IMG/VR virus record: IMGVR_UViG_3300032053_000004
Location: 128,001-192,000 of that record
DNA: 64,000 nt
Reading direction: 5' to 3' (one strand)
DNA from: a virus
Lineage: Duplodnaviria; Caudoviricetes
Part shown: positions 1 to 18,873 of the stretch, piece after piece
How positions within the stretch are numbered: the first letter of the stretch is position 1
Layout of the letters: the number at the start of each line of letters is the position of its first letter
Translations under genes and position numbers: made by a program
Notes under the pieces: generated by a model
What the model was told of the DNA's origin: nothing
The model's input: only the letters and a program-made list of their open reading frames with translations
Databases searched by the model: none

Positions 1-1
1 T

Positions 2-1138
2 CAAGGTAGTCCAGGATCTCCCGGCCCAACCGGAGCAGCAGGACCAACGGGGGTAACTGGAGCCACTGGACCTCAAGGTAGTCCAGGACCTACAGGTCCT
101 CAGGGATCGCCGGGAGGACCAGGACCAACCGGACCTCAGGGTAGTCCGGGCAGTCCGGGTCCAACCGGTGCAGCAGGGCCCACAGGCGTTACAGGGGCTA
201 CGGGCCCTCAGGGAAGTCCCGGTCCAGTTGGATCTCCTGGTTCACCTGGTTCACCTGGTCCAACTGGTCCTCAGGGTTCTCCTGGTAGTCCAGGTCCTAC
301 CGGACCTCAGGGTTTACCTGGATCTCCTGGTCCAACTGGCCCCCAGGGATCTCCTGGTTCTCCTGGCCCAACTGGCCCCCAGGGTTCTCAGGGTTCACCT
401 GGTCCTACCGGACCACAAGGATCACCTGGTCCAACTGGTCCAACTGGTCCACAAGGTTCTCCTGGATCCCCCGGCCCCACTGGACCTCAAGGATCTCCTG
501 GATCCCCCGGCCCCACTGGAATCGATGGTCCTACTGGCCCTCAAGGTTCTCCAGGTCCAACTGGACCACAAGGGTCCCCAGGGTCCCCAGGTAGTCCTGG
601 ATCGCCCGGTCCTACTGGACCTCTAGGTTTTCCTGGGAGTCCTGGGAGTCCTGGGAGTCCTGGTCCTACTGGACCGTTGGGGTCTCCAGGATCACCTGGC
701 CCCACTGGACCTTTAGGACCTTTAGGAACACAAGGTTCACCAGGTAGTCCAGGCCCTACCGGTCCTGAAGCAACTCCATCGTCTCAGATCATTGAGGCCA
801 CTGGAACTATCACAACCACATCGACTACTGACACGCTTGCTACGTCAATGACTGTAACACCAACCTCTGGTACATATCTCGTATGGTTTACAGGATCAGT
901 TGATAATAGTACTACTAACAGCTCGATTTTTACATCAATTTATTCGAATGGCGCACAGGTAGCTTCTTCCGAAAGAAACTTTCGACGTGGTGGTTCTCAA
1001 GGAAACGTAGCTTCTGCATTTGATTGTGCAGCAAGAGTCACAGTTAATGGTTCTCAAGCAATTGAAGGTCGTTGGAGAGTTGATGCTGGAACCGGTAGCA
1101 TGTATCAACGAAGTCTTATGATTCTCAAGGTAGCCTAA
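2..1138 (+). CDS. Collagen-like fibre protein (5'-truncated) with C-terminal beta-rich, probably trimerisation, domain
   Basis: Frame 2 is open from base 2 into track ORF 677..1138. Gly-X-Y triplets (GSP/GPT/GPQ) are followed by ~120 aa of beta-rich sequence, the architecture of BclA/C1q-type proteins. Confidence 0.9.
5..769 (+). repeat. Collagen triplet repeat, 85 Gly-X-Y units within the window
   Basis: Gly codons recur every 9 nt from position 5 to 761 with no register break seen. Confidence 0.9.
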
Positions 1139-1139
1139 T

Positions 1140-1976
1140 ATGCCTCTTAGTCAATATACATACACGATCGCGACTGATTTTCCAAACAATTTAGTCAACT
1201 CGGATCGACTCACTCTTGAAATTATAGCCACTGCGATAGTACCTGTCCTTGATCATATTGATACTGAGAATGGGTTTTGCGATATATTCTTCCAATCAGC
1301 TCTTTCTGTTGGAGAGCAAACTACGCTTGATGGTGTTGTCGCAGTACATTCTGGCGCTCAGTTTTCTGGTCAGGTTCTCTATGGACACACTGGTGCACCA
1401 ACATTTGCTGATGATTTCTCAGAAGAAAACACCACAGGGCAAATATGGGTTGATCAACCAGGCGGCAGAGCATTTGTTAATATTTCGCCAACGCCAATCG
1501 GATCAGCTATATGGTTGTCCATGGGGGGTGGTTCACCAGGCCCTACTGGTCCCATCGGTCCCCCCGGACCAACTGGACCTCAGGGACCAACAGGTACAAA
1601 TGGGCCTCAGGGCTCACCCGGGCCAACTGGACCTCAGGGACCAACTGGACCTCAGGGACCAACTGGACTAAATACGAGTGCTCATGAACAATTAAGACAA
1701 CTGATTCATTTTATTGATGATGGTCCCGGTTTTGGTTTTGCTTCCGGAGCTTATAGAGAAGTTTCTGGTGTTCCATTCCCAACAGCCATAACCTGGTATG
1801 AAAGTTCAAATAAGACTGCTAAAATAGTTGAAAAGTTAATTTCTCTTCCATTAATAGCCCCCACAGGCATAACATGGAATATGTATGGAGTTGGGGGAAC
1901 ACCGATAGTTCAAACAATTGGTGACAGAATTGTTTATACAGGGATTTTCGAAATTTCAAGGATTAGATCAATATGA
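1140..1976 (+). CDS. Virion fibre/decoration protein with short internal collagen segment
   Basis: About 15 central Gly-X-Y triplets (GPTGPQ...) between globular N- and C-terminal regions. Start is 1 nt after the upstream stop. Confidence 0.75.
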
Positions 1977-2000
1977 CTTTATTAAACTTTGGTGATTACA

Positions 2001-3803
2001 ATGAGTGATACACCCGCTGTAATCATTTATAATTCAACTGGTACAGACGCGGCTGCGGTGAAGGCAGCGAGCACGGCGGCTGTTGCTGCCGATACAGCTC
2101 TGGTCGTTGCTATTAGTCCAAACTCCAACGATGTTGCTGTAGCCTATTACGATAATGGTCAAGGAGAGTCTGCAACTTGGGATAATACTACGAACCTCAG
2201 TGTTGATGTTGAGGCTATTCCACCCACTGTTGCTGGTAATGCCTGCACTGTCAGTATCTCACTGACACGTACCGGGACAATTACAGCAGGCGAGATTTCG
2301 TTTCAGGGTTCGGACGCAACTGGTGGTGTTTGGTTCCCGGTAAAAGCAACTCGTACCGAATCATTCACGACCGAGAACTCCATTCTGCTATCTGGCGTAG
2401 CAGACATTATGTGGAAGGTGAGTTGTGCCGGGTTCTTTGGCCTCCGGGCACAACTCACCACACAGATAACGGGTGCGGGCAGTGTGTTTATTACGACCCT
2501 ATGGGATACCTCCCCTGTAGGTGACACAAGATCCACTGTTGGTCAGAGTGATGAGACTAAGCTGAACGCCACGACCACTCTGAGGAGCGGACTCAAGGGC
2601 TCATCAGCAGCAGCTCTGGTGACTAGCTCTGCATCTGGGGCGAATCACCAGCCCCTCGATGTTGCGATCTACGACGCCACAGGCAATCAGATCACGAGCT
2701 TTGGCGGTGGAACCCAGTACACGGAGGATGTTGCTGCTCCAGCCGATCCTACTGGAACTTCCAAGGTACTGGTTCGTGCTGATACACCGGCAACGATCAC
2801 GGGAACTGATGGTGACTGGGTTTCTCAGAGAGGAACCAACTACGGTGCTGGGTATGTCCAGGTCGTTAACTCAACTGGGTCATTCGTAGACACGTTCGGT
2901 GGTGGTACGCAGTACGCGGACGGTGCTGCTCGTGGGACTGCTACCGGCACCTTGATGATGGTGGATGACGGCACGCTGGTTCAGTCGGCAAGTGGAGACT
3001 CTACAGGCAAGCTCAACGTCAATGCGATTCAGAGCACGGCTGCTGGTGCGGCGGCACCGTGGGCGACACGACTCAGTGATGGTGCCGCGTTCTACGATGC
3101 AGCCAAGACCGGGCAGCTCCCCGCTGCACTCGTAGGCGGTCGCCTAGACGAGAATGTCGGGGCCTGGCTCGGTTCTACGGCTCCCACGGTGGGGTCCAAG
3201 ACTTCAGCGAATTCTCTCCCGGTAGTTATCGCTTCTGATCAAGGTGCGGTTCCGGTCTCTGGAACTGTCACTGCCGGTCAGGGCACGGCTGCGGCTCTGG
3301 CAGGATACTGGCCGGTTCGTGTGACCGATGGCACCAACACGATGCCCACCCTGGACACGGTGGGTCGTCGTGGGTTCGTCACAATCACGGACGGCACGAA
3401 TTCGATGCCGACCGGTGATGCAATCGCCAGGGCGCTCTTCGTTCGTCAGACCGATGGGACGAACAACGCCACGATCAAGGCGGCTAGCGTCACAGCAGTA
3501 GCGGCAGACACCGGGATCGTAGTTGCACCCCGTGCGTCAGCAACCGGTACGCAGACAAGCGTTGCATCAAGCGCAACAAGCGCGCAGCTACTTGCGGCGA
3601 ATACAGCTCGCATGGGTGCGATCATCTTCAACGATTCGACGCAAGTATGCTTCGTGAAGTTCGGCACGACCGCATCAAGTACGAGCTTTGCTTATCGCCT
3701 CACGTCGAACTCGACGCTGGAGGTGCCCTATGGGTACACGGGTCGTATCGACGCGATCTGGGCATCTGCGAATGGTAACGCTCGAATCACCGAGATGACG
3801 TGA
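2001..3803 (+). CDS. Ala/Thr/Gly-rich fibre or structural protein
   Basis: Long ORF with internal repeats (SFGGGTQY/TFGGGTQY; VTDGTNTMPT/ITDGTNSMPT; IKAAS..AVAADT twice). Lies in the fibre cluster. ATG at 2001 preferred over the track start at 1989. Confidence 0.65.
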   Translation: MSDTPAVIIYNSTGTDAAAVKAASTAAVAADTALVVAISPNSNDVAVAYYDNGQGESATWDNTTNLSVDVEAIPPTVAGNACTVSISLTRTGTITAGEISFQGSDATGGVWFPVKATRTESFTTENSILLSGVADIMWKVSCAGFFGLRAQLTTQITGAGSVFITTLWDTSPVGDTRSTVGQSDETKLNATTTLRSGLKGSSAAALVTSSASGANHQPLDVAIYDATGNQITSFGGGTQYTEDVAAPADPTGTSKVLVRADTPATITGTDGDWVSQRGTNYGAGYVQVVNSTGSFVDTFGGGTQYADGAARGTATGTLMMVDDGTLVQSASGDSTGKLNVNAIQSTAAGAAAPWATRLSDGAAFYDAAKTGQLPAALVGGRLDENVGAWLGSTAPTVGSKTSANSLPVVIASDQGAVPVSGTVTAGQGTAAALAGYWPVRVTDGTNTMPTLDTVGRRGFVTITDGTNSMPTGDAIARALFVRQTDGTNNATIKAASVTAVAADTGIVVAPRASATGTQTSVASSATSAQLLAANTARMGAIIFNDSTQVCFVKFGTTASSTSFAYRLTSNSTLEVPYGYTGRIDAIWASANGNARITEMT

Positions 3804-4483
3804 TGCCCGTCTCAACTCCATCTCAGGCTATCATCAGCGAGACGTTCCTGGTCTCAGGCACGACCTTCACGACAGGTCCGACCACAACCCGAATCAAGGT
3901 CGAACAGGTCGGCGGTGGCGGTGGAGGTGGAGGTGGTGTCACTGGTGTGACGGCAACATCGGCGGCTCCCGGTGGTGGCGCTGGTGGCTACGCCATCAAG
4001 ATCTTCGATGTAACCCCCAACACGAACTACACCTACGCGATCGGTGCTGCCGGAACAGCGGCGACCGCCGGGAACAACGCTGGCGGAAATGGTGGCAACA
4101 CTACGTTTGCAGTGGGAGCCGTGACCGTTACTGCCAACGGTGGGACCGGCGGTGCTGGCGGCGGCGTCGCTGCCACAACTGTCCTGATCTTGGCCGGTGG
4201 TGCTGGTGCTACCGTTGGAACCAACGGTGACGTCAACGCTCCTGGTCAGGGCGGTGGGGCCTCGACTCGACTCTCGGCAACGATTGCAGCCAGCGGTAAC
4301 GGAGGAAGCGGACGGTTTGGGGCCGGGGCTCTAGGAACTGTTGCTCAGGGCGCAGGCACGGCCGGAACCGGTAACGGCTCGGGAGGCTCGGGTGGCCTTT
4401 CACTCAACGGCGGTGCCTCGGTTGCAGGTGGTGCCGGAACGGTGGGGGCGATCCTCGTGACCGAATACGAGGCCACGGCATGA
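3803..4483 (+). CDS. Glycine-rich (GGGGGGG/GAGG motif) protein, candidate fibre-tip adhesin
   Basis: VGGGGGGGGG, GGGAGGY, YTYAIGAAG and GGTGG motifs typical of phage glycine-rich domains. TGATG overlap with the upstream gene. Confidence 0.7.
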   Translation: MPVSTPSQAIISETFLVSGTTFTTGPTTTRIKVEQVGGGGGGGGGVTGVTATSAAPGGGAGGYAIKIFDVTPNTNYTYAIGAAGTAATAGNNAGGNGGNTTFAVGAVTVTANGGTGGAGGGVAATTVLILAGGAGATVGTNGDVNAPGQGGGASTRLSATIAASGNGGSGRFGAGALGTVAQGAGTAGTGNGSGGSGGLSLNGGASVAGGAGTVGAILVTEYEATA

Positions 4484-5160
4484 TCCAGCAGGCCAAGCTC
4501 GTTCTACTCAGCGAGACCTACCTGACGACGGGCACGACCCACACGGTCAGCAGCAATACGCACAGGATCTTCATCGAGCTGGTCGGCGGCGGTGGTGGTG
4601 GCGGTGGTGCCTCTGGAACTGGCTCTCAAGCCGGGGCGGGAGCCGGTGGTGGAGCCGGTGGATACGGCTGCAAGGTCTTCGACGTGGTGCCCAGCACCGG
4701 CTACACCTACGCGATTGGAGCGGCTGGAACGGCTGGAGCGGCAGCGGCCGGTACTGGAGGCAACGGAGGCGACACGACCTTCGCGGTGGGGGCCACGACC
4801 GTCACGGCCAAGGGAGGCACCGGAGGTGTCGGTATGGCGAACGGCACGACCTCGTTGATCACCAAGGGCGGGGCCGGGGGTGTCGTCGGCTCCAACGGTG
4901 ACGTGAACGCTTCAGGGGACAACGGCGGTGATGGGGTTCGGTTGTCTGGCTCGATTCGTCGGGCCGGTGAAGGTGGCAGCGGTCCTTTTGGTGCCGGGGG
5001 GCAGAACACGAACGTCAGTGGAAACGGTGGCGCAGGTTCGGCCGGAACTGGCAACGGCTCAGGCGGTTCCGGTGGCAGCAGCGGCAACGTCACGAATCGA
5101 GCCGGTGGTGTCGGCACGGTCGGCGCCATCCTTGTGCAAGAATACGGTTACGTCACGTAG
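4480..5160 (+). CDS. Glycine-rich protein, tandem paralog of 3803..4483
   Basis: Colinear with the upstream ORF (YTYAIGAAGTA, TTFAVGA.TVTA.GGTGG, NGDVNA, GTGNGSGGSGG, GTVGAILV.EY). ATGA overlap. Confidence 0.75.
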   Translation: MIQQAKLVLLSETYLTTGTTHTVSSNTHRIFIELVGGGGGGGGASGTGSQAGAGAGGGAGGYGCKVFDVVPSTGYTYAIGAAGTAGAAAAGTGGNGGDTTFAVGATTVTAKGGTGGVGMANGTTSLITKGGAGGVVGSNGDVNASGDNGGDGVRLSGSIRRAGEGGSGPFGAGGQNTNVSGNGGAGSAGTGNGSGGSGGSSGNVTNRAGGVGTVGAILVQEYGYVT

Positions 5161-5168
5161 GAGAAGTC

Positions 5169-5546
5169 ATGCCTTTCATCATCACAGCCCCAGAGACCAA
5201 GACGATCACACAGAAGTACGTGATCACGAACCCAACCAACGACGACGTTGTAGAGGTGAGTGCCGTCCGGACCATCGACCGCGTGAACATCGAGCACATC
5301 ATCACCAGTATGCCGATCAACAACCCGACCGGCGTCTCCATGACAGTCAAGTGGAGTATCGGCTACATGGACGGAGTCGTATTCTTCCCGACCGAGCGGG
5401 GCAGTGCCGAGCTGGCCGGTGAAGCGTTGCTGACCAAGATGGTCGAGCCGGTGATTCCAGGGGCCACCCACTATGGTGATCACAAGGCTGCGCTATACGA
5501 GCTTCTCGTTGCATTGGGCCACATCCCGGCTGGATCAATCGTATGA
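5169..5546 (+). CDS. Small fibre-associated protein (chaperone/cap?), paralog of 39691..40071
   Basis: Shared MP..IT.PETK.ITQ, RTID.V.I, MP.NNPTG.S, WSIGYM...FFP and HY.D.K.ALY.LL. SD-like AGGAG upstream. Confidence 0.7.
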   Translation: MPFIITAPETKTITQKYVITNPTNDDVVEVSAVRTIDRVNIEHIITSMPINNPTGVSMTVKWSIGYMDGVVFFPTERGSAELAGEALLTKMVEPVIPGATHYGDHKAALYELLVALGHIPAGSIV

Positions 5547-6400
5547 GAGCGTTGGTTCTCAGCGGGGGCGGGAGCAAGGGCGCGTATCAGGTCGGCGCGC
5601 TGAAGCGGTGGGTGTTTGAGGAAGGAGCAGACTACGAGATTCTGACGGGTATTTCGGTAGGAGCCATCAACACCACCTACCTCAGCCAGTATCCTGTAGG
5701 ACAGGGCAAGCAAGGCTACCAAGCCCTCAAGGATCTGTGGGACACTGTGACTCCTCGCAAGGTTAAGAAGAACTGGTTCCCCTTCTGCCAACTCGAAGCT
5801 CTCTGGAAGCCCTCTGTGTACAACTCGGAGCCTCTCCAGAAGTGGGTTCGGGGTGGTCTTGACACCGAGAAGGTCTTGGCTTCCGGGAAACTCCTTCGGA
5901 TCGTAACGGTCTCGTGGGACACCGGGGAGGCCAGAGTTATCTCTCAGGATGACTCTCAGCTTGCCGATTGGGTCATCGCAAGTTCAGCTTTTCCTGTCAT
6001 GTTGAGCCCCATCCGTATAGACGGTCAGCTCTGGACGGACGGCGGCCTAAGAAGCGTCACTCCACTCGGGGAGGCCATCCGTGCTGGAGCAACCGAGATT
6101 GACGTGATCATGTGCTCGGACCCTTATGCCAAGAGTCCGTTTGCATCGAAAGGCAAGGGAGCTTTCCCCAGCCTCACCATGCGAGCCATCGACATAATGT
6201 CTGACGAGATCATGAGGGCGGACTTGAAAATCTGTGGTCTCAAGAACGACCTGGCCGAACTAGATTCCAAATACCGGAAAGTCCATATTCGTCGTCTTCT
6301 AAAACCCTCTGTTGATTTAGGGGACTCTTTGGATTTCGAACAAAAGAATATCATTAGAATGGAAAAAATCGGGTATGATGATGCATGTAATTTAATTTAA
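5543..6400 (+). CDS. Patatin-like phospholipase
   Basis: Oxyanion loop GGGSKG, nucleophile elbow GISVG (GxSxG), SSAFP and DGG catalytic Asp motifs. Confidence 0.92.
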   Translation: MRALVLSGGGSKGAYQVGALKRWVFEEGADYEILTGISVGAINTTYLSQYPVGQGKQGYQALKDLWDTVTPRKVKKNWFPFCQLEALWKPSVYNSEPLQKWVRGGLDTEKVLASGKLLRIVTVSWDTGEARVISQDDSQLADWVIASSAFPVMLSPIRIDGQLWTDGGLRSVTPLGEAIRAGATEIDVIMCSDPYAKSPFASKGKGAFPSLTMRAIDIMSDEIMRADLKICGLKNDLAELDSKYRKVHIRRLLKPSVDLGDSLDFEQKNIIRMEKIGYDDACNLI

Positions 6401-6424
6401 TTTTTTTTTCTGTATAGTTTATTC

Positions 6425-8920
6425 GTGAAAGCCCCCATATCGGCCTGTCTTATAGTTAAAAATGAAATTGGACAAATCGAAAATTGTCTTAAGTCTATAC
6501 GTCCATATGTAGAAGAAATAGTAGTAGTAGATACTGGTTCCACTGATGGAACTCCGGAAATAGTTAAAAAATATGCTGATATATTTGAAGTTTTTACAGG
6601 ATGCAATGACTCAGAAGGACGGATTGAATCTTTTTCTTTAGCAAGACAAAGAAGTTTTGATTTAGCTACTAAACCTTGGCTTTTTTGGATAGATGGTGAT
6701 GATGAGGTTCAAGGGGCCGAATATTTACTTGAATTAACTACAAAATATGATAAACTGAGAAATGGATCACCTGTAATGGTGATCATACCATATGATTATT
6801 CATTTGATGAAAAAGGAAATGTCACATGTCTTCATTATAGAGAAAGATTAATCACTCCAAAAACTGCATGCCATTGGGTTAGTCCTATACATGAAATTTG
6901 TACACCAAATGGTCCTGGGACCGTCATGGTCCAGGATGAAAAAGTTCGCGTTGTACATAAACGACATCTTGTAAATAAACCATTTGAGCAAAATCGGAAT
7001 CTTCGTATCCTAAAATCTCATTATGAAAAGCATGGCGAATCTGATATTCGTCATCTATACTACCTTGGTCTCGAGTATGGAAACGTTGGTGATCTAGGAA
7101 ATGCTATAAAATTTCATAAACGGTATGTTGAACTTTCAGGCTGGGATGATGAGAGGTTCCTCGCTTGTTTGAAGGTATCTGAACATTATCAATCAATGGG
7201 TGATTATGATAGTTCTGTTGATTGGGCTTCAAAAGCTCTCATAGTTAGAGAGGGTTGGTGTGAAGCTTATTTCTCTTTAGGGAGAAGTTTTTATTTCATG
7301 GCCCAAAAGGGCGGAAAAGATTCATATAGAAATTGGGAAAGAAGTGTTCATTTCTTTTCATTAGGGCTTTCTTTACCACCGACCAAAACTATTCTTTTTG
7401 TTAATCCGACAGAAAGAAATTATGATGTTCATAGATATTATAATTTAGCTTTACATAATGTAGGTCAAACTGAAAAAGCTTTGGAAAGTGTAAATCAAGC
7501 ACTTCAAATGAGACCTGATGATGATGGTCTTATTGGAAATAAAAAAATTTATGAAAATGATTTAGCTCGCAAGACGATAGATAAAAATTTATCTATTCTT
7601 CATAATATGGGAGTATTGTCTACCGACCAAAATCAATTGATCATAGATGTTCTTTCAGGAAAATTAACTAAATTAACTAAATCGAATGTTGAAAATAAAC
7701 AAGAAATTAAATCGGAAATCACCTTAGAAATTAAAAAAGAGTCCACACTTGGAACCGAAGAAGTTATACGACCTCTTAATGACCTTAAATCAGTAATAAA
7801 TACGAAATACGAAATCGTGTTTTATGTCGGTCCAGGTCCCGAATCTTGGACCCCAAATACTGCTAATAAGATTGGGATTGGTGGGTCTGAAACTGCTGTA
7901 ATAGAAATGGGTCGAAGATTAGCTAAACTTGGTCATACTATTCGAGTTTATGGAGATTGTCCGAATTCTGAAGGTGTATATGATGGTGTTTCATATTTTG
8001 ATCACACAAAATATCAAAATCAATCATGTGATATACTAATAACATCAAGAAGGCCAAACGCTGTAGACGATACTAATAATGTTAAATCTAGAGTTACGTT
8101 TTGTTGGGTCCATGATGTTAGTTGTGGTGGGGCTCTTACTCATGCAAGGACTATTCGAACAGATAAGTTTTTGACTTTGAGTCAGTGGCATAAAAACAAC
8201 TTTTTAAGTTCTCATGTTTCTGTTCATCCCGACCAAGTTATTGTTACTAGAAATGGTATTGATTTGAATAAATTCAAAAAATCTGTTCAAAGAAATCCTC
8301 ATAAAGCTGTTTATAGCTCAAGTCCAGATCGTGGGATGGAAGTTGCGGTTCGTATTTGGCCGCGAGTACGGGAAAAAATACCTGACGCGGAACTTCATGT
8401 GTTTTATGGTTTTCAAACTTGGGAAGTCTCAGCTGTCAATGACCCGGGTCAAACTAATTTAATTAAACATTTGAAAAATGTTCTTAAGGAACATGAGGAA
8501 CACGGGGTTATTTTTCATGGGAGAGTTAACCAAGAGGAACTTGCGAATCACTTTTTATCGAGTGGTGTTTGGCCATATAGTACTTGGTTTACCGAGACAA
8601 GTTGTATAACCGCTATGGAAGCCCAAGCCGCTGGCCTTAGAATTGTCACTTCTCCTATTGCTGCTCTAAATGAAACCGTCGGGCCTCGAGGAGTCATGAT
8701 CCCTGGTGATTGGCTATCTCCTGATTATCAAAATAAATTTGTTGATGCTGTTGTAGAAGCGATGAATAAAACTGACGATTCTGATCGTGAAATTTTAAAG
8801 AAATATGCAGAAGAAAATTTTGGTTGGGACTCGTTAGCAAACGACTGGGAAAAGATGTTTGAATCAGTCATTGAAGAAGTCTCAACAAATATGATTCCTC
8901 CTTATAAGGGGTACTTGTGA
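6425..8920 (+). CDS. Multidomain glycosyltransferase: GT2 + TPR + GT4
   Basis: N-terminal ISACLIVKNE, VVDTGSTDGT, FSLARQRS and WIDGDDE (GT2). Helical TPR-like middle (YYLGLEY, EAYFSLG, YNLALHN). C-terminal GGSETA, YSSSPDRG and ETSCITAMEAQAAG (GT4/GT-B). Confidence 0.92.
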   Translation: MKAPISACLIVKNEIGQIENCLKSIRPYVEEIVVVDTGSTDGTPEIVKKYADIFEVFTGCNDSEGRIESFSLARQRSFDLATKPWLFWIDGDDEVQGAEYLLELTTKYDKLRNGSPVMVIIPYDYSFDEKGNVTCLHYRERLITPKTACHWVSPIHEICTPNGPGTVMVQDEKVRVVHKRHLVNKPFEQNRNLRILKSHYEKHGESDIRHLYYLGLEYGNVGDLGNAIKFHKRYVELSGWDDERFLACLKVSEHYQSMGDYDSSVDWASKALIVREGWCEAYFSLGRSFYFMAQKGGKDSYRNWERSVHFFSLGLSLPPTKTILFVNPTERNYDVHRYYNLALHNVGQTEKALESVNQALQMRPDDDGLIGNKKIYENDLARKTIDKNLSILHNMGVLSTDQNQLIIDVLSGKLTKLTKSNVENKQEIKSEITLEIKKESTLGTEEVIRPLNDLKSVINTKYEIVFYVGPGPESWTPNTANKIGIGGSETAVIEMGRRLAKLGHTIRVYGDCPNSEGVYDGVSYFDHTKYQNQSCDILITSRRPNAVDDTNNVKSRVTFCWVHDVSCGGALTHARTIRTDKFLTLSQWHKNNFLSSHVSVHPDQVIVTRNGIDLNKFKKSVQRNPHKAVYSSSPDRGMEVAVRIWPRVREKIPDAELHVFYGFQTWEVSAVNDPGQTNLIKHLKNVLKEHEEHGVIFHGRVNQEELANHFLSSGVWPYSTWFTETSCITAMEAQAAGLRIVTSPIAALNETVGPRGVMIPGDWLSPDYQNKFVDAVVEAMNKTDDSDREILKKYAEENFGWDSLANDWEKMFESVIEEVSTNMIPPYKGYL

Positions 8921-9861
8921 GAGTCATTGTAACAGGTGGGGCTGGATTTATCGGTTCACATCTTTCTCTGAGTTTGTTAGAACTTGGACACGAAGTCATA
9001 TGCATTGATAACTTTTTTACATCTCGTAAAGAAACTATTTCTAATCTCACATCTTTCTCAAATTTTGAATTGATGAGACATGACGTTTGTGATCCATGGC
9101 ATATAGAAGCTGACCAAATATACCATTTAGCTTGTCCTGCGAGTCCAGTTCATTATCAAAAAAACCCGGTAAGAACTATTAAAACTGCTATGATCGGGAC
9201 TTTAAACGCTCTTGAATGCGCTCGCGATACTAATGCTCGCCTAGTTATCACATCGACTTCTGAAGTTTATGGGGATCCGATTATTCATCCTCAATCAGAA
9301 GACTATTTTGGAAATGTTAACCCAATTGGTGATAGAAGCTGTTATGATGAAGGGAAAAGAGTCGGAGAAAGTTTAGCTGTTTCTTGGTCAAAACAATACA
9401 AAACTGATGTTAGAATAGCTCGTCTTTTTAATACTTACGGGCCTCACATGGCGTTTAATGACGGTCGTTTAATCCCGAATTTTATCCTTCAAGCTATTGA
9501 AGGAAACCCTCTTACAGTTTATGGAGACGGATCTCAAACTAGAAGTTTTTGTTATGTATCGGACACAGTTCGTGGACTAATAAAATTAATGAACGTAGAC
9601 CAATCAGATAAAGTTCCTGTCATAAATATCGGGAACCCGGATGAAAGAACTATTCTTTCAGTTGCTAACGATATAATTAAATCAATAAACACTTCCCTGC
9701 GTACGGTTCATGAGCCTCTCCCGTCAGATGATCCTAAACAACGGTGTCCTGACATCACAAAAGCTAAACTTCTTCTTGATTGGGAACCTGTTGTTTCTTA
9801 TGAAGAAGGCATATCGAAAACTGTGAAGTGGTTTACTTCTGAATCTCGGAGTAGAAAATGA
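8917..9861 (+). CDS. uxs: UDP-glucuronate decarboxylase (UDP-xylose synthase), extended SDR
   Basis: GGAGFIG, IYHLACPASP, TSTSEVYG, RSCYDEGKR, ARLFNTYGP, RSFCYVSD and DDPKQRCPDI match the UXS subfamily signature. Confidence 0.88.
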   Translation: MRVIVTGGAGFIGSHLSLSLLELGHEVICIDNFFTSRKETISNLTSFSNFELMRHDVCDPWHIEADQIYHLACPASPVHYQKNPVRTIKTAMIGTLNALECARDTNARLVITSTSEVYGDPIIHPQSEDYFGNVNPIGDRSCYDEGKRVGESLAVSWSKQYKTDVRIARLFNTYGPHMAFNDGRLIPNFILQAIEGNPLTVYGDGSQTRSFCYVSDTVRGLIKLMNVDQSDKVPVINIGNPDERTILSVANDIIKSINTSLRTVHEPLPSDDPKQRCPDITKAKLLLDWEPVVSYEEGISKTVKWFTSESRSRK

Positions 9862-11135
9862 ATTGGGAATCTCGTAAAAATATCGGTCCTAATGGACCCT
9901 CAGAAACAGATTTTCCTGTTGCTGTAAATACCCCTCATTCTCAAGCTTGGGGCATACCTGAAGAATTTTTTATCGAAGAACTTCCTCTTCGAATGACTGA
10001 TAATCAATTACAATCCATGGTTCTTACCATTTGGAGAGAATTCATTCTTAATGATGAAGTTTTATCTGCAATTTCATTTCTTGAAAACGCACCATATAGA
10101 GTTCGCCATACTGAAGCAACCACTCGCGCCTTAAACATAACTAAAAAATCTATTGAGTGGATGTTTGATCATTCTAAAAGTCAAACTATAAATACTCCCC
10201 GTGATCCAAACGGGGTTCCATTCACAATAGAAGTTGGCAACATTCTTCCGGATCCTCTAACAGGACAACTTGAAGGAAGGTCTACTTGGATTACCAATAG
10301 ATTAACTCCTGGTTGCAGTCTTATAGATTTCGGTTGTATTGACGGATCTATGACAAACCGTTGGGGGATGTCAGGATTTAAAGTAACCGGTGTTGATCTG
10401 AGTATGAATTCAATATCTATAGCAAACAAGAAAGCTATTCAGTTTAATACTGGAGCTAAGCATATATGCTCTTATTTTAAGAACATTCCGAACCATATCA
10501 TACAAAATTCTTTTGATGTCGCTACCTGTAGTGATACATATGAACATCTTATCGACCCTATTGTTGATTTACTAGAACCGGCCAGAAAATGTCTTTCTGG
10601 CCATGGAAGAATGCTTTTAGTTACTCCTCATGGAGCCTGGTTTCGTGGTAAATTTCTTTCTTGGGCCCATCCTTGGTCTTGGTATAAGAGTGGTTCTTCC
10701 TGGTTAAAACCAGAACCAAGAGCTCATTTAGTAGCGCCAACTGTTTGGTCTGTTGCGGATCATTTTCGAAAATCTAAATGGTGGGTTAAATCCTCTGAGG
10801 TTGTTATACAGTCTTATGGGGACGTTCCTGGTCAAGGAAATGTGTGTGTGGAAGCTTTCGTTAACCCTCCACCTGTTTGGCCGGGTTTAGATATTGTAGT
10901 TTTGGGGTCTAATTTTGAATTGGCTGAATCTTTAGCTCTTCTCGGTAATAGAGTTCGCCATTTCGGACCTTGGGATGAAGAAAAGATATCGAATTTTGTT
11001 GATCATATATTTGACTCAAAACTATTTGATATCAAATGTGACGTTCTAATTTCTGATACGAACGTTGATTCTGTCGTTTCTAATAAAATTTATCCAAGCT
11101 CTGCTTCAGCTTCTGACGTTATCAATGGTGTCTAA
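9858..11135 (+). CDS. Class I SAM-dependent methyltransferase with degenerate GT4-like C-terminal stub
   Basis: LIDFGCIDG (motif I), VTGVDLS, FDVATCSDTYEH and GRMLLVTP. Confidence 0.8.
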   Translation: MNWESRKNIGPNGPSETDFPVAVNTPHSQAWGIPEEFFIEELPLRMTDNQLQSMVLTIWREFILNDEVLSAISFLENAPYRVRHTEATTRALNITKKSIEWMFDHSKSQTINTPRDPNGVPFTIEVGNILPDPLTGQLEGRSTWITNRLTPGCSLIDFGCIDGSMTNRWGMSGFKVTGVDLSMNSISIANKKAIQFNTGAKHICSYFKNIPNHIIQNSFDVATCSDTYEHLIDPIVDLLEPARKCLSGHGRMLLVTPHGAWFRGKFLSWAHPWSWYKSGSSWLKPEPRAHLVAPTVWSVADHFRKSKWWVKSSEVVIQSYGDVPGQGNVCVEAFVNPPPVWPGLDIVVLGSNFELAESLALLGNRVRHFGPWDEEKISNFVDHIFDSKLFDIKCDVLISDTNVDSVVSNKIYPSSASASDVINGV

Positions 11136-12283
11136 TGAGAATTGCTTTCTTAAATCATCCTATTGGGGTCAGAGACCCTGTTAATCCTGTTGATGTTTGG
11201 ACCTCTTCTAGAGGTTTAACAGGATCTGAGATTGCTTTTTTTAAATACGCAGAAGAACTAACCAAACTCGGTCATGACGTAAATTTATTTACCAAATTTA
11301 CTACTTCCGACCCGTTGGGTGGAAACGGACCTTATTGCATTCCTTATGATCAATGGGAAAGCATTTATTCTAAACAGAGTTGGGACGCAGCTTGTTGTTG
11401 GACGGTTGCGGACCCTCTTTCTTTAGTTGGTCCTGGAATATTTAGATTTTTGAATCATCAATGCAACGGATTTAGCGTCAGTCTTTCTGGTTGGGAAAAA
11501 TATGTTGATATAATAGCGCCTCTTTCTCATACTCACGCTAGAGCTTTATCTAAAGATACGTCATTTTCTAAGGATAAATGGAGAATTCTCTACAATGGCG
11601 TTGATTGTTCTAAATTTTATCCTGAAAATAAAGAGTCTGGAAAATTGATTTGGGCTTCCTCTTTAGATAGAGGACTTCATTGGTTATTAGAATCTTTTCC
11701 TTATATCAAAAGAAAAGCTCCTAACACGGAACTTCACGTCTTCTATGATTTCCATTCAATAGAACACGCGGCTGAGGTCTATTATCCTGGCGGGCAGCCG
11801 TATTTCACGAATGAACACTTTGAACTTGGGAACCGGGCTCGTTATATTTTGCGTGCTCTTCAAAAACTTGAAGGAAAAGGTGTTCATGTCCATAAATCAG
11901 TTAGTCGTTCCAGAATAGAACAAGAAATGAAAACTTCTTCTATCTTGGCCTATCCTTTAGATTCTATTTATTTTACTGAAACTTTCGGTGTCGTTGTTTT
12001 AGAAGCGTGTGCTTCAGGGACTATTCCCGTTCTATGTCTTGGCGATGCGTTCGGTGAGCTTTGGGGAGAAGTTGCTGAATCAGTTCCTCCCCCGTTTAAA
12101 GATCATAAAAATGAATATTTAGAAAAATTAATCAAATGTTTGACTGATGACGCATATAGGGACAATCTATCTAAAAAATGCGTTGATCATGCTAAGAAGT
12201 TTGAGTGGTCAGTTCTCGCTAAAGGATTGGAAAAGTGCCTCTTGACTAAGGGTCAAGAGGGCCTTCCTCTTGTTGATTGGTGA
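11135..12283 (+). CDS. Glycosyltransferase family 4 (GT-B)
   Basis: GLTGSEIA, NGVD, WASSLDRG and ETFGVVVLEACASG. Confidence 0.9.
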   Translation: MRIAFLNHPIGVRDPVNPVDVWTSSRGLTGSEIAFFKYAEELTKLGHDVNLFTKFTTSDPLGGNGPYCIPYDQWESIYSKQSWDAACCWTVADPLSLVGPGIFRFLNHQCNGFSVSLSGWEKYVDIIAPLSHTHARALSKDTSFSKDKWRILYNGVDCSKFYPENKESGKLIWASSLDRGLHWLLESFPYIKRKAPNTELHVFYDFHSIEHAAEVYYPGGQPYFTNEHFELGNRARYILRALQKLEGKGVHVHKSVSRSRIEQEMKTSSILAYPLDSIYFTETFGVVVLEACASGTIPVLCLGDAFGELWGEVAESVPPPFKDHKNEYLEKLIKCLTDDAYRDNLSKKCVDHAKKFEWSVLAKGLEKCLLTKGQEGLPLVDW

Positions 12284-12287
12284 CATA

Positions 12288-13415
12288 ATGAATTTAAAAA
12301 TTGCTTTTATTTATGGAAACTGGTGTTTGGGGAATCGTCCCATTAATGTCAATGAATTATTTACATCTAAACGGGGTCTTACTGGCTCGGAACTTTCTTG
12401 TTTTATGTTTGCAAAAGAAATGGCTAAGAAAGGTCATAACACTTCATTATTCATAGGCGGCGGGTCAGGAGAATGGGAAGGAGTTAAAATTCGCGATATA
12501 TCGGAGATATCATCTATTGATCCAACTTGGGATGTCGCCTATTCTTGGAATGAACCAGATCTTCTTCGTCAAGTAAACGCTAATTTGCGGATGATGAATC
12601 AGCAACTTAATGATTTTGCTTATTGTCAACCTGGGTATGACGAATCTGTTGATGTTTATACAAGTCCTTCACAAACTCATATGGAGTTTCTTAAACCTCA
12701 AACACCGTCGCCCAATAAATGGGCAGTTATTCCTAACGGTTGTGATCCGAGTCAATACTCAGCCGGGAAAAAAGTTCCTGGAAGAGTTATTTATGCCTCC
12801 TCTCCTGACAGAGGACTTCATCTTTTGATGCAGGCTTGGCCTCGTATTAAGAAAAATGCTCCCCATGCTCATTTGAAAATATTTTATAACATGGATTACT
12901 GGTTGTCTGTTTTTGTTGGTCAAGAACACTCTATATACCCTGATTCAATGGAATATGGGTATAGAGCTAGGTATATAGATTTAGCTTTTAAAAGATTTGC
13001 TGATTTAGGCGTAGAAAGAGTTGGGTCAGTTAGTCGAGAAGAAATAGCTCAAGAAATGTCAGAAGCTGAAGTTCTGGCATACCCATGTGATACTGCCCGT
13101 TTTACAGAAGGATTTTCTGTAACAACGATGGAGGCTTGCGCTGCTGGAGCTGTTCCAGTCATTTCTTCCGTTGATGCTTTAGGTCAAATATATGGATCAT
13201 TTATACCAACTGTTGAAGCCCCGGTGAAGAATAGATTAAATGAATTTGCTGATATAATATCTCGTTCTCTTAATGATGAAAAATTCCGGAATAGTGTCAT
13301 ATTTAAAGCAAAAAGTCTTGCCCATAAACATAAATGGGAAAAACTTTCTTCTGATCTTGAGAGTTTGATTATGAATAAGTTAGAGTTAAAAAGATGTTCC
13401 CAGCCTCTCATTTAA
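12288..13415 (+). CDS. Glycosyltransferase family 4, paralog of the upstream gene
   Basis: GLTGSELS, PNGCD, YASSPDRG and EGFSVTTMEACAAG. ATG at 12288 preferred. Confidence 0.9.
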   Translation: MNLKIAFIYGNWCLGNRPINVNELFTSKRGLTGSELSCFMFAKEMAKKGHNTSLFIGGGSGEWEGVKIRDISEISSIDPTWDVAYSWNEPDLLRQVNANLRMMNQQLNDFAYCQPGYDESVDVYTSPSQTHMEFLKPQTPSPNKWAVIPNGCDPSQYSAGKKVPGRVIYASSPDRGLHLLMQAWPRIKKNAPHAHLKIFYNMDYWLSVFVGQEHSIYPDSMEYGYRARYIDLAFKRFADLGVERVGSVSREEIAQEMSEAEVLAYPCDTARFTEGFSVTTMEACAAGAVPVISSVDALGQIYGSFIPTVEAPVKNRLNEFADIISRSLNDEKFRNSVIFKAKSLAHKHKWEKLSSDLESLIMNKLELKRCSQPLI

Positions 13416-14932
13416 CCCGTCACGCCCGCTCTCAAATAGAAAAGATTCCGGTACTTCTTATAGTGCCGCCGTCTATTTTTTTACTTGATGAACGTGTATT
13501 CATATCTTTAGGAATTTTGAAAGTAGCCGCGAGTCTTGAAGCGGCCGGGCATTCTGTTGAAGTTTTAGATTTATCAGGGATTGATAATTTTGAAGAAGTT
13601 TCTGCGATTCAGGCTAAAAATTCTTCTTCAAACATAGCTTGTTTAACTATCACAACTCCTCAACTCCCTGCGGCCGTAAAAATAGTTAAGTCTATTCGCA
13701 ACGCTCGTCCTGACATGAAAATTGTGGCAGGTGGTCCACATGTTACTCTAGTTCATTCTGCAGTTAAACTTGAGAGAAAAGCCGGTCGAATCGGTCGAGC
13801 TCACCGAGCCTTAACGAAACTTGAAGAAATTTTCAATGTTCTTGTGAGTGGTGATGGTGAAAATTCTATTTTTCAAGCTATTAGTGAAAATGCTTCTAAA
13901 GTAATTGATGCTGATGACCCTAAAAACGGTCTGTTTATGACGAATGAAGTTTATGGATCTACTCCTTGGCCCGCTCGTCATTTGATTGATATAAAATCAT
14001 ATAAATACACAATTGAAGGTTTTCCAGCAACTAGTTTAATAGCTCAACTTGGGTGTCCGTTTGGTTGCACATTTTGCGGAGGAAGAAACAGTAATATGCT
14101 CCGGAGGATTCGTACGAGATCCACCGAAAGCATTGTTGGAGAAATTGAGCATCTTCATAAAAATTACGGCTATACTGGGTTTATGCTTTATGACGACGAA
14201 CTTAATGTATCAAAAACAATTATTGAGCTTATGAACTCTATTGCGGATTTACAAGAGAAACTTGGAGTTGAGTTTAGATTACGAGGTTTCATTAAGAGTC
14301 AGTTGTTTACTGACGAGCAGGCTCAAGCTATGCGAAGAGCTGGATTTCGGTGGCTTCTTTGCGGATTTGAAGCTGCTAATGATCGGATACTTGAAAATAT
14401 AAACAAACGAGCCGATTTAGCAGATAATAATCGAGTGATGGAGATCGCAGCTCGTCACGATCTTAAAGTAAAAGCTTTGATGAGTGTTGGTCACGCTGGA
14501 GAGTCAGAAAAATCCATAATGGACGTGCGAGATTGGCTGCTTCAAGTTCATCCCGCAGATTTTGATGTAACGACTATCACAACTTATCCAGGCACTCCGT
14601 ATTATGATGAAGCTTTAGAACATCCGGAGTTGCCTGATGTTTGGACATATACGGCCAAAAACGGAGATAAACTTCATAGTTATGATGTAGATTATACTGC
14701 TGTTGCTGATTATTATAAAGGAGACCCGAGTGGCGGATACCATTCATATGTATTTACAGATTATTTATCTGGAGACGAAATAGTAAAACTTCGAGATCAA
14801 GTTGAAAACGAAGTTCGAGAAAAACTGAATATTCCATTTAATCCTGGGGCTCCAGGGGTTAAATATGAACATTCAATGGGTCAAGGACCTCTTCCATCAA
14901 ATATTCTTAGACAATCTAAAATTAATAAATAA
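13394..14932 (+). CDS. Cobalamin-binding radical SAM protein (class B methyltransferase-like)
   Basis: N-terminal B12-binding-type region (SLGILKVAA, VEVLDL, IVAGGPHVT, SGDGE) and the CPFGCTFC CxxxCxxC motif, followed by YDDELN, CGFEA and YPGTPYY. Confidence 0.9.
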   Translation: MFPASHLTRHARSQIEKIPVLLIVPPSIFLLDERVFISLGILKVAASLEAAGHSVEVLDLSGIDNFEEVSAIQAKNSSSNIACLTITTPQLPAAVKIVKSIRNARPDMKIVAGGPHVTLVHSAVKLERKAGRIGRAHRALTKLEEIFNVLVSGDGENSIFQAISENASKVIDADDPKNGLFMTNEVYGSTPWPARHLIDIKSYKYTIEGFPATSLIAQLGCPFGCTFCGGRNSNMLRRIRTRSTESIVGEIEHLHKNYGYTGFMLYDDELNVSKTIIELMNSIADLQEKLGVEFRLRGFIKSQLFTDEQAQAMRRAGFRWLLCGFEAANDRILENINKRADLADNNRVMEIAARHDLKVKALMSVGHAGESEKSIMDVRDWLLQVHPADFDVTTITTYPGTPYYDEALEHPELPDVWTYTAKNGDKLHSYDVDYTAVADYYKGDPSGGYHSYVFTDYLSGDEIVKLRDQVENEVREKLNIPFNPGAPGVKYEHSMGQGPLPSNILRQSKINK

Positions 14933-15572
14933 TGCCTGACTCCATATTCGGGAGTACTAGCTTAAGCCAGTCCGGGTGCTCTGTACTACGGGTCGCATGA
15001 TCCCGTCTTGGAGATCCGAGACGCTTCAGGACCACTCCATGAACAAATCCGGACCGAGTGCCGGTGACCGACCTATGTTCGACGGCTGATTTCTTGATGA
15101 TTTCGAATCGTTCCTTGTTCATCGGGAACTGATCGACGACCGAGATATCTTCCGTACCAGGTCCGATGACACGGGAAAGTATTTCCCTTCGTTTTTCGAT
15201 CGGGAGACGACCTAGACTAACTTCCCCGTCTCGAATGACGTCCCAAAGGGAAATGAGGCACTGGACGCCCTTATTGTGTCTCCAGCTCCCTCTCTTTGTC
15301 GGAGTCCAGATTTCCCCGTCCAGAACAGTTCCCTTCTTAAGGTTCAAAGCCTGAAGCTGGGAAACCAGATTATCCGGAATTTCAATCGGCTTCTTTTCTC
15401 GGGTCCAGAGTTTAACTGAACCATTAGCGATAATAATTACTCGGAAACCGTCTAATTTCGGCTCGAGGAGATATTTAGAATTGTCGATTTTGTCAAAGAT
15501 AGATTCATCGACTCGAACGGGTTTAAAGGGGTAAACCCAAAAACCTTCAGAATCAATTCCTGTCATTTGCAT
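14922..15572 (-). CDS. Minimal ATP-dependent ligase / nucleotidyltransferase (adenylation domain only)
   Basis: Motif I EPKLDG, III VLDGE, IIIa LWDV, IV HGVVLK and V WLK. Ends 11 aa after the motif V Lys. Start MQMTG at 15572 preferred over 15725. Confidence 0.8.
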   Translation of the reverse strand: MQMTGIDSEGFWVYPFKPVRVDESIFDKIDNSKYLLEPKLDGFRVIIIANGSVKLWTREKKPIEIPDNLVSQLQALNLKKGTVLDGEIWTPTKRGSWRHNKGVQCLISLWDVIRDGEVSLGRLPIEKRREILSRVIGPGTEDISVVDQFPMNKERFEIIKKSAVEHRSVTGTRSGFVHGVVLKRLGSPRRDHATRSTEHPDWLKLVLPNMESGIIY

Positions 15573-15700
15573 AAATATTGATATGAAGTCGGGTTTCAGA
15601 TTTACGTTCTTAATGTTCAAGAGATTTAGGTAAACAAATTTCCACCCCAAACCCTTCTCCAAGACCTGTCCTTTTAATCCGTCTGACCCACACGGGTCTG

Positions 15701-16915: not shown

Positions 16916-16941
16916 TATGTTTTTAATTATTTGAAATAATT

Positions 16942-17796
16942 ATGAATATTTTTTCTTTAGCATCCATAGCCATACGAATTGCCGGTTTTGAACATCAGGC
17001 ATATATAAAGAAAACTCCTGGGAAGGGATATTGTGTTAAATCTCCAAAAAATCCTGATTGGTCAGGAGGATGCTATCCTACTAAAGGTGAAGCTCAAAAA
17101 CGTCTTCAACAAGTTGAAATGTTTAAATCTCTGAAAGGTAAGAAGAAGAAAGCTTCTCAAAATAGAATAATTGAAAAACAACAAAATTTAATTTCTGATT
17201 CAGAAATGAATAATATAAATTCTGATCTTGGGAACGCTAAAAATCCAGGTGACACTTTAAAAATTCTTGATAAACATAATTTAGAAATTTCAAAAACTAG
17301 TATGAAACGTTGGTATAGGCCAAATATTAGTTATCAGTTGAAATATAAAGATATAAAACATCCTATACGAAACGCCGAATTTTATGTGGATTCTTCTGAA
17401 GGAAGTGGAGGAGGAATATTTTCTGAACTTAGAAAAACCAGTGTCATCCGTCCTTTAAAGGCAAACGAAGCTCGCGATTTAGATATACTTTTTCTTTCGT
17501 GGGATTTGATCGTTAAAAATCCAGGGTCTATAATACTTGATGTTTCAGATATTTCTAAAAATCCTGACGTAAGCCCGATTGATTTAGATATGTATCTAAA
17601 AACTAAAAGTAATAAATTCATAGATATCCCTAGTGCCATTTCTTTTATTGTTAACACTGGAAAACCTGGAGATTTAATCCGATTAAATGAAGGAAAACAA
17701 CAAAAGAAATATGATTTTAAATCTTTTCGAAATGAATCAGAAAGTTTAAAGCATGGAGACTGGTTTCCAGATCCACAAGCATCTTTTGAATTTTGA
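16942..17796 (+). CDS. Hypothetical, probable head-associated protein with N-terminal IAxRIA motif
   Basis: Starts LASIAIRIAG, followed by a small basic Cys-containing domain (GKGYCVKS..GGCYPTK.EA.KRL.QVEMFK). Confidence 0.55.
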   Translation: MNIFSLASIAIRIAGFEHQAYIKKTPGKGYCVKSPKNPDWSGGCYPTKGEAQKRLQQVEMFKSLKGKKKKASQNRIIEKQQNLISDSEMNNINSDLGNAKNPGDTLKILDKHNLEISKTSMKRWYRPNISYQLKYKDIKHPIRNAEFYVDSSEGSGGGIFSELRKTSVIRPLKANEARDLDILFLSWDLIVKNPGSIILDVSDISKNPDVSPIDLDMYLKTKSNKFIDIPSAISFIVNTGKPGDLIRLNEGKQQKKYDFKSFRNESESLKHGDWFPDPQASFEF

Positions 17797-17837
17797 TTAA
17801 CACCATGTGATGCAAGTTTATTAAGTAATATGTTTAA

Positions 17838-18785: not shown

Positions 18786-18873
18786 CGTTGAATTGTTTAG
18801 TTGAATTACTCCTGCTAAAACGAAGTTTGTCTATAAGCTGCGTGATTAAATTTTTTTTTGATTTTAATTTAAT

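Follow-up and report, generated by a model that had tools for sequence, protein, structure and literature searches.

The 64,000-nucleotide stretch of DNA analysed here, called the window throughout, comprises bases 128001-192000 of a linear 202,143-bp IMG/VR virus record with a CheckV completeness of 47%. Downstream of genes for collagen-like proteins it carries a six-gene cassette headed by an 831-residue glycosyltransferase, which we call the lead enzyme. Judging from sequence and predicted structure, we think it probable that with this cassette the phage encodes a cytoplasmic pathway that O-glycosylates its own collagen-like fibres. The cassette products have recognisable domain identities and intact motifs, the lead enzyme is homologous to SgtA of Clostridioides difficile, and the gene order is conserved among related phages.

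The cassette and its lead enzyme

The six genes lie contiguously on the plus strand (window 6425-14932), and each overlaps the next, the five overlaps measuring 1-22 nt. Both the overlaps and the Pfam assignments agree with the initial annotation, made from the letters of the sequence, which described six contiguous genes encoding four glycosyltransferase (GT) domains. With the gene that borders them downstream, they are:

6425..8920, plus strand: lead enzyme, 831 aa; Glycos_transf_2 (E 2.4e-15), TPR, Glyco_trans_1_4 / Glycos_transf_1
8917..9861, plus strand: UDP-glucuronate decarboxylase (UDP-xylose synthase, UXS), 314 aa; NAD epimerase/dehydratase (E 1.9e-51)
9858..11135, plus strand: S-adenosylmethionine (SAM)-dependent methyltransferase, 425 aa; Methyltransf_23 (E 1.8e-11)
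11135..12283, plus strand: GT4 glycosyltransferase, 382 aa; Glycos_transf_1 (E 4e-10), EX7E at 282
12270..13415, plus strand: GT4 glycosyltransferase, 381 aa; Pfam E 5e-10, EX7E present
13394..14932, plus strand: B12-binding radical SAM enzyme, 512 aa; Radical_SAM (E 5e-22), B12-binding (E 6e-13)
14922..15725, minus strand: short ATP-dependent DNA-ligase-like gene; NCBIfam ligase matches (E 1.7e-13)

The lead enzyme begins with a GT-A domain of the SgtA/GmaR/SunS type (residues 1-180), matched by Pfam Glycos_transf_2 over residues 6-142. Its DxD motif lies at 90-93, where D90, D92 and D93 do not vary among 16 homologues. A TPR-like helical domain follows at 190-410 (Pfam TPR_1, E 1.3e-06; helical repeats in the AlphaFold2 (AF2) model), then a disordered linker (414-459) and a GT4 domain (460-822) that has a GT-B fold in the same model, whose mean pLDDT is 84.9. 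The EX7E motif of the GT4 domain spans 724-732, and E724-x7-E732 is again invariant in homologues. The closest structural matches of the GT-A/helical half are SunS and ThuS, followed by SPINDLY (SPY) and the O-GlcNAc transferases (OGT). A PDB search with a profile of 16 homologues gave GmaR first (E 5e-29) and SunS next (E 2e-17). GmaR is the Listeria enzyme that puts N-acetylglucosamine (GlcNAc) on flagellin (PMC9638930). As GmaR, SunS/ThuS and SPY/OGT all act on proteins or peptides, the lead enzyme appears to belong to a protein-glycosylating GT2-TPR lineage.

The initial annotation had drawn a parallel with the C. difficile pair SgtA/BclA3, and the comparison of sequences substantiates it. 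Residues 5-376 of the lead enzyme are 29% identical (E 7e-38) to residues 7-355 of a 361-aa C. difficile ORF, with matching DTGSTD and W-x-D-x-DD blocks. In the one chromosome used, this ORF lies directly upstream of a 712-aa Gly-X-Thr collagen ORF; we equate it with sgtA by position and length, not by accession, and the sgtA/bclA3 arrangement and size are as published (PMC7157674). SgtA adds beta-O-GlcNAc to Thr, and also to Ser, of BclA3 collagen-repeat peptides, using UDP-GlcNAc and Mn2+, while the enzymes that extend the BclA3 glycan have not been identified (PMC7157674).

Homologues of the lead enzyme number more than 1400, and the best 120 are 47-77% identical over their full length, many of them on 300-445-kb contigs. 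In some relatives a methyltransferase of the 9858-11135 type is fused to the enzyme, giving forms of 1100-1150 aa. Hint/LAGLIDADG intein domains occur in the homologues P0026, P0036, P0072, P0078, P0081, P0082, P0092 and P0096. P0036, the one whose insertion site was checked, carries an intein of ~350 aa inside the GT4 EX7E motif, before a conserved Cys. Inteins usually sit in indispensable conserved sites, and its position exactly within EX7E argues that this site of the GT4 domain is conserved and needed.

The second gene was labelled a UDP-xylose synthase in the initial annotation, and the label is secure: its product matches human UXS1 with 386 bits (E 1e-114, residues 2-309) against 125 bits for the next PDB family, and carries the GxxGxxG and YxxxK motifs. 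NCBIfam holds no matching equivalog for it, the best model being RmlB, below cut-off. The methyltransferase is of class I, with a core at 150-275, an intact motif I and uncharacterised flanking regions; its homologues in related loci are 25-49% identical. This clear UXS orthologue and intact methyltransferase would fit the xylose-containing, methylated glycan that the same annotation suggested. In PDB sequence searches the methyltransferase and one of the free GT4 enzymes found generic matches only. Of the lead enzyme's partners the GT4 at 12270-13415 is the best conserved, and free-standing homologues of it occur in 45 of the 80 viral loci described below.

The last enzyme of the cassette has the radical SAM motif CPFGCTFC at 221-228 and fits the class B (cobalamin-dependent) pattern. 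It reached no curated radical-SAM subfamily, all NCBIfam matches lying far below their cut-offs, and its only PDB matches, the uncharacterised 9CCB and the sugar-modifying AprD4, are both weak. A hydropathy scan found no clear transmembrane-grade segment in the six cassette proteins (maximum 19-residue Kyte-Doolittle means of 1.2-1.9), the only borderline segment being in the GT4 at 11135-12283. Nor does the cassette contain Pfam domains of an initiating phosphoglycosyl transferase, a flippase/transporter or a polymerase.

Collagen-like genes and their linkage to the lead enzyme

Between the left edge of the window and the cassette the following genes are found:

1..1138, plus strand: C-terminal part of a collagen-like protein, whole ORF 1993 aa; Pfam Collagen (E 5e-42)
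1140..1976, plus strand: second collagen-like candidate substrate, 278 aa; Pfam Collagen (E 3.4e-07)
1989..3803, plus strand: Ala/Thr/Gly/Ser-rich fibre-like protein by composition, 604 aa, no known family
3800..5160, plus strand: two paralogous Gly_rich_2 proteins, 227 and 226 aa; Pfam E 3e-08 and 1e-09
5169..5546, plus strand: 125-aa ORF with no family match in the Pfam search
5543..6400, plus strand: patatin-like serine lipase/acyl hydrolase; Pfam Patatin (E 3e-29)

We propose the 1993-aa collagen protein, whose gene starts 4844 nt before the window, as the main glycosylation substrate. Its 578 Gly-X-Y triplets fall into three tracts (133, 373 and 72), and it also has a 128-aa mid-chain beta domain and a C-terminal all-beta knob of ~120 aa. 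Its collagen tracts hold 208 Thr, 198 Ser and only 8 charged residues; Thr takes 34% of the Y positions and Ser 34% of the X positions, and the triplets include 168 GSP, 119 GPT and 103 GPQ. The initial description of a Thr-rich collagen therefore stands, but Ser is equally abundant. With a collagen helix rise of ~0.29 nm per residue, the tracts would reach ~0.5 micrometre. Language-model features of the knob point to Bc2l-C_N, BclA_C and C1q-type domains (0.85-0.90); its single-sequence AF2 model is poor (pLDDT 61) and Foldseek gave no significant match. The 278-aa protein has 16 GPT/GPQ-type triplets between two globular domains, and its homologues lie directly 5' of the glycosyltransferase in the related loci L014, L015, L017 and L044. 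These two are the only collagen genes in the 202-kb record. A prolyl-hydroxylase-type oxygenase was found neither in the record nor in three of four complete relatives.

The cassette and the fibre genes share one strand, closely spaced, in the region of the virion genes, 28 kb past the major head gene; the lead enzyme starts 5.3 and 4.4 kb downstream of where the two collagen genes end. The initial annotation placed the cassette directly downstream of collagen and Thr-rich fibre genes; downstream is correct, directly is not, as five genes (1989-6400) intervene. It had also pointed out that cassette and collagen genes, if they belong together, should co-occur across related genomes. We scanned IMG/VR with the lead enzyme and obtained 80 loci, in which a collagen ORF was counted if it had at least 60 residues of Gly-X-Y and lay within 10 kb, using on each side the loci with at least 3 kb of flank there:

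Enzyme identity at least 40%: collagen upstream in 25/35, downstream in 1/39
Enzyme identity 31-39%: collagen upstream in 1/12, downstream in 0/16
Enzyme identity 30% or less: collagen upstream in 0/20, downstream in 0/16

The two do co-occur, and the association at 40% identity or more is strongly directional (Fisher p = 1e-10; 23/33 upstream once identical duplicates are removed). The cassette without fibre genes, which would speak against the link, was found in distant members of the family only.

A FastTree phylogeny of the GT2-TPR region gave the same picture. The window falls in a well-supported clade of 38 rows, 31 of which have collagen nearby. The basal small-phage clades have no collagen nearby, except for a clade of four rows (L045, L049, L054, L068) in which three do. 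Strong support separates the phage half of the tree from a Firmicute half, where collagen is nearby in 42 of 75 rows. In all five near-complete relatives (CheckV 100% in four, 92% in one) a giant collagen gene lies no more than 10 kb upstream; its open frame is 1898-2430 aa in four and 1008 aa in the fifth, and there are further collagen genes elsewhere. A small collagen gene often directly abuts the lead enzyme in relatives.

The linkage extends to bacteria. Scanning bacterial genomes with the GT2-TPR region gave 80 loci, which bar three come from spore-forming Firmicutes or related Bacillota and are 27-35% identical. A collagen-like ORF is present in the flanks of 46, with Thr in 70-100% of Y positions, and usually starts less than 100 nt from the enzyme's stop. 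L107 and L108, from metagenome-assembled genomes (MAGs) labelled Methylobacter and Gemmatimonadales, have enzymes 68% and 45% identical to the lead enzyme and are nested in the phage clade. Both contigs probably belong to phages and entered these MAGs through a binning error; as a hint at a host they are weak at best. L129, a MAG contig labelled Sphingobacterium, groups among the Firmicute rows.

Homologues below 40% identity, in smaller phages, adjoin capsid or other fibre-like genes. As many loci, chiefly those below 40% identity, have no collagen nearby, the enzyme family seems to serve other substrates too. The wider family thus looks, from its gene neighbourhoods, like one of virion-protein glycosylation with several types of substrate.

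Between conserved anchors the content of the cassette differs among relatives, with the lead enzyme and one GT4 nearly constant. The ligase-like gene is the conserved downstream anchor that ends the variable cassette, and lies outside the pathway; it is also found on the minus strand 3' of the cassette in L017, L043, L044 and L047, with a plus-strand homologue in L019, and in several relatives it is accompanied downstream of the cassette by two conserved ORFs. UXS orthologues occur in 7 of the 80 viral loci and B12 radical-SAM genes in 11, while other loci have C-methyltransferase-type, cupin, GFO/IDH oxidoreductase or other short-chain dehydrogenase/reductase (SDR) genes in their place. The radical-SAM gene accompanies UXS in six of seven loci (Fisher p = 1e-5, with the kinship of the loci uncorrected). 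This layout is like that of a serotype locus. Since relatives differ in cassette content, their glycans should differ from phage to phage. The variable island also points to diversifying selection on the fibre glycan, which would then bear on adsorption or on escape from recognition.

The genes that separate the collagen genes from the cassette have a codon usage of their own. GC content at third codon positions (GC3) is 0.22-0.28 in the two collagen genes and the cassette (0.27 in the 1993-aa gene; genome median 0.30) and 0.54-0.75 in the five genes of 1989-6400, with 0.59-0.70 in the Gly_rich_2 pair. The major head gene (0.66) and ~12 other genes are likewise biased, and high GC3 may be a sign of strong late expression and not of foreign origin. 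That the fibre genes were imported recently was considered and rejected: the collagen genes carry the genome's own GC3, and only 1989-6400 is GC3-rich. For that segment expression-linked codon bias is as likely as import, because the major head gene is GC3-rich too.

The patatin-like lipase at the edge of the cassette has its GGGSKG, GISVG and DGG motifs and is predicted to be catalytically intact. Homologues with 32-55% identity border the cassette in 11 related loci, always at the edge, upstream or downstream. We also considered whether the 422-aa gene that precedes the large collagen ORF, in the same frame with one TAA between them, forms a read-through fusion with it. This was rejected because collagen ORFs of relatives (2406 aa and 2430 aa in two complete genomes) share the short N-terminus at which the ORF here starts, and have no similarity to the 422-aa protein.

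A proposed pathway and its alternatives

We infer the substrate, the donor sugars, the order of the steps and the place of the fibre in the virion, and the pathway might run as follows. Late in infection the GT-A/TPR half of the lead enzyme would recognise unfolded or trimerising Gly-X-Thr and Gly-Ser-Pro repeats and move a first sugar, presumably from a UDP-sugar, to Thr or Ser, much as SgtA modifies BclA3. Up to three more residues would then be added by the GT4 domain of the same protein and by the two free-standing GT4 enzymes. One added residue would probably be xylose, made from host UDP-glucuronate by the phage UXS. The SAM methyltransferase would methylate the chain, perhaps capping it, and the B12 radical-SAM enzyme would further modify either the sugar or the polypeptide.

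The glycan probably stabilises and hydrates a triple helix that is free of hydroxyproline and nearly uncharged, and sets the surface specificity of the fibre. In Riftia cuticle collagen, for example, O-glycosylation of Thr at Y positions stabilises helices that lack hydroxyproline, and a structural role of the glycan would explain the tight linkage of collagen and enzyme genes. A broader picture, which we offer tentatively and would not bet on at even odds, is of a clade of ~400-kb sediment phages bearing collagen 'hairs' about half a micron long, with an O-glycan made wholly by phage enzymes and differing between phages as glycan 'serotypes', the window holding the variant with xylose, methyl groups and a cobalamin-radical-SAM step. 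That picture includes a radical-SAM modification not known in any protein-linked glycan and a hypervariable island at a fixed locus.

Several observations weigh against glycosylation of the collagen fibres as set out here. Collagen is absent within 10 kb from ten of the 35 close loci and from nearly all loci below 40% identity, and in the window itself five genes stand between the collagen genes and the cassette. The PHROG 'tail fibre' matches of the collagen protein are driven by its repeats themselves. Donor sugars are not readable from sequence, and as UXS is present in only seven of 80 loci, xylose would be a trait of this variant, not of the system. A UDP-glucose dehydrogenase was not found in the 202-kb record, and UDP-glucuronate would therefore have to come from the host or from an enzyme encoded in the missing half of the genome. 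One complete relative has such a dehydrogenase just past its cassette, which fits a route from UDP-glucose through UDP-glucuronate to UDP-xylose.

The cassette might instead, or in addition, glycosylate other virion proteins, such as capsid or decoration proteins, the 604-aa protein or the Gly-rich proteins. We regard this as unlikely, though it draws on real parallels. In the unrelated 42-kb podovirus MW202524, where no collagen is present, a homologous enzyme is encoded immediately after the major capsid gene and one small ORF, and the podovirus glycosyltransferase cluster includes a Ser/Thr/Gly-rich 598-aa protein and an unannotated 144-aa ORF (L094 7906-8340) that shares the C-terminal module of the 604-aa protein: the last 63 residues of the latter (window 3621-3803) are 50% identical to it. 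The basal small-phage clades also lack nearby collagen, and capsid and tail-tube glycans of mycobacteriophages are cited in PMC12619734. Against this, collagen is adjacent in 31 of the 38 rows of the window's own clade, the nearest characterised enzyme, SgtA, acts on collagen repeats, and no neighbouring protein comes near the ~400 Thr/Ser acceptor sites of the collagen ORF. Remodelling of a host-surface glycan or glycolipid by an auxiliary gene set, for superinfection exclusion or receptor masking and with the lipase acting on the lipid part, seems improbable. Polysaccharide loci do typically hold GT4 and SDR sugar-nucleotide enzymes, the GT4 domain weakly matches NCBIfam models of glycosyltransferases for glycolipids and polysaccharides, 11 loci have an intact patatin-like lipase at the cassette border, and JGI labels homologues as 'involved in cell wall biosynthesis'. 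But membrane-bound enzymes for initiation, flipping or polymerisation are missing from the cassette, as is any other membrane protein, which makes such remodelling unlikely; moreover the lead enzyme comes from a protein-glycosylating lineage, the locus has a fixed position after fibre genes in the virion-gene region, and the collagen linkage is directional.

Phage glycosyltransferases classically modify DNA (PMC12619734), and this phage encodes DNA modification otherwise, in two proteins with Mom-like domains. Hypermodification of a modified base by the cassette, as in T4 and 5-hydroxymethyl pyrimidine phages, is nevertheless very improbable, since neither a hydroxymethylase nor a Tet/JBP domain was found. 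The initial annotation saw no base-hydroxymethylase and treated DNA hypermodification as the alternative; the alternative is weakened further, as no ThyA-like hydroxymethylase is present in the 202-kb record, in which half the genome is missing, and one (289 aa, ThyA-type) is present in just one of five complete relatives. The Tet/JBP search, made without a positive control, was negative in the record and in four complete relatives. GT2-TPR architectures have not been seen among DNA glycosyltransferases, and the cassette lies among late fibre genes, not replication genes. We give equally little credence to the maturation of a small secreted glycopeptide, a glycocin-like ribosomally synthesised and post-translationally modified peptide (RiPP), by SunS-like glycosylation and radical-SAM C-methylation. 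SunS and ThuS head the structural matches of the GT-A/helical half, and the radical-SAM enzyme has weak matches to RiPP C-methyltransferase families such as ApyD and rSAM_ocin_1. Yet no candidate precursor peptide, exporter or immunity gene was found in the cassette, similarity to SgtA (E 7e-38) and to GmaR exceeds that to SunS, and UXS with three GT4 modules implies an oligosaccharide, which glycocins do not carry.

The wider record is that of a tailed phage, with TerL, portal and prohead protease at genome 92-104 kb and the major head protein at 105.8 kb (105824-106708; phrog_2522, E 6e-47). Its coding density is 93%, with 181 of 230 ORFs on the plus strand. Related contigs with terminal repeats span 393-436 kb, so the full genome is probably ~430 kb. 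A lookup of sequencing runs placed the stretch in 24 sediment metagenomes and listed no RNA runs carrying it. Neither near-identical DNA nor close homologues were found among GenBank phages, and a promoter and terminator scan of window 1-19000 gave nothing that clearly exceeded shuffled expectation.

Elsewhere in the window, Volactin (PF25216, E 9e-72) spans the full length of a 342-aa protein (25398-26426, plus strand). This family of cytoskeletal proteins with an actin fold was first described in haloarchaea, and on this match the huge phage may encode its own actin-like filament protein. A homing-endonuclease-like family (phrog_559 / phrog_3339) is present at window 43083-44873 (plus strand) and 40293-42056 (minus strand) and at genome 115352-116782, 13 kb ahead of the window; two homing-endonuclease-like proteins carry the Mom-like DNA-modification domain (Pfam Mom, E 4e-07; phrog_1384, E 1.9e-27). 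Window 15701-16915 (plus strand) encodes a 404-aa protein in which His/Thr motifs recur (HTHT, HSHS); it has an elevated GC3 of 0.49 and a weak tail-fibre PHROG match (E 1.9e-05). Window 28587-33632 (plus strand) is a 1681-aa ORF with no Pfam match in a richer region (local GC 0.45-0.49).

Comparison with known systems

The system closest to the proposed fibre glycosylation is C. difficile SgtA/BclA3. In both, a soluble DxD GT-A domain is followed by TPR helices, with homology over nearly the full length of SgtA, and the enzyme gene lies near a Gly-X-Thr collagen-like gene. Thr and Ser of collagen repeats are proven acceptors for SgtA and proposed acceptors for the phage enzyme. SgtA has 358 aa, whereas the phage enzyme has 831 and an extra GT4 domain. 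The phage cassette adds its own sugar-nucleotide, methyl and radical-SAM enzymes. The presumed phage substrate, a fibre of 578 triplets, is rich in GSP besides GPT, unlike BclA3. If the proposed pathway is correct, the phage would make it possible to ask genetically which enzymes elongate the glycan beyond its first sugar in SgtA/BclA systems, as the candidates here form one operon with one of them fused to the initiator, and it would offer soluble enzymes for the glyco-engineering of collagen-like materials.

Daubenspeck et al. are said to have found in 2004 that the GPT repeats of BclA in Bacillus anthracis carry a rhamnose oligosaccharide capped by methylated anthrose. The phage fibre resembles BclA as a collagen-like filament with GPT triplets and a terminal beta knob, and its proposed glycan would likewise be a short O-glycan with a methylated sugar. 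The sugar chemistry differs, with a xylose pathway in the phage and rhamnose and anthrose in BclA, and a BclA-C/C1q-like fold for the phage knob is a weak lead only. Genomes of the B. cereus group do carry homologues of the GT2-TPR region, with no collagen gene within 8 kb of them. GmaR and SunS/ThuS are the closest solved GT-A relatives and glycosylate proteins or peptides directly in the cytoplasm. Their substrates are different, flagellin for GmaR and a Cys of a small peptide for SunS, and the place of GT4 in the phage enzyme is taken in GmaR by an antirepressor domain.

To our knowledge, glycosylation of tailed-phage virions is known experimentally only from mycobacteriophages, and that of collagen by SgtA-type enzymes only from bacterial spores. 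We found no description of their pairing in the literature on phage collagen fibres and glycosyltransferases. If the pathway exists, a widespread clade of huge phages does both. A 2025 paper on 'moraphages' described four core glycosyltransferase groups and assigned them no target (PMC12619734). The same paper cites Freeman et al. 2023 for mycobacteriophages, in which glycosyltransferases encoded beside structural genes decorate virion proteins with O-glycans. There the substrates are the C-termini of capsid and tail-tube proteins, and the citing text mentions no SgtA-like enzyme, UXS or radical-SAM enzyme (PMC12619734).

The remaining parallel lies outside the bacterial viruses. Its enzymes are unrelated: mimivirus is a eukaryotic virus whose collagen is glycosylated on hydroxylysine by L230 and whose fibril glycans are polysaccharides. 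What it shares with the phage is a very large virus's own set of sugar-nucleotide and glycosyltransferase genes, collagen-like genes and, as proposed for the phage, a cover of glycosylated fibres over the particle (PMC4691112). If its fibres are glycosylated as we propose, the phage would be a bacterial-virus counterpart of the giant eukaryotic viruses with their glycosylated fibrils.

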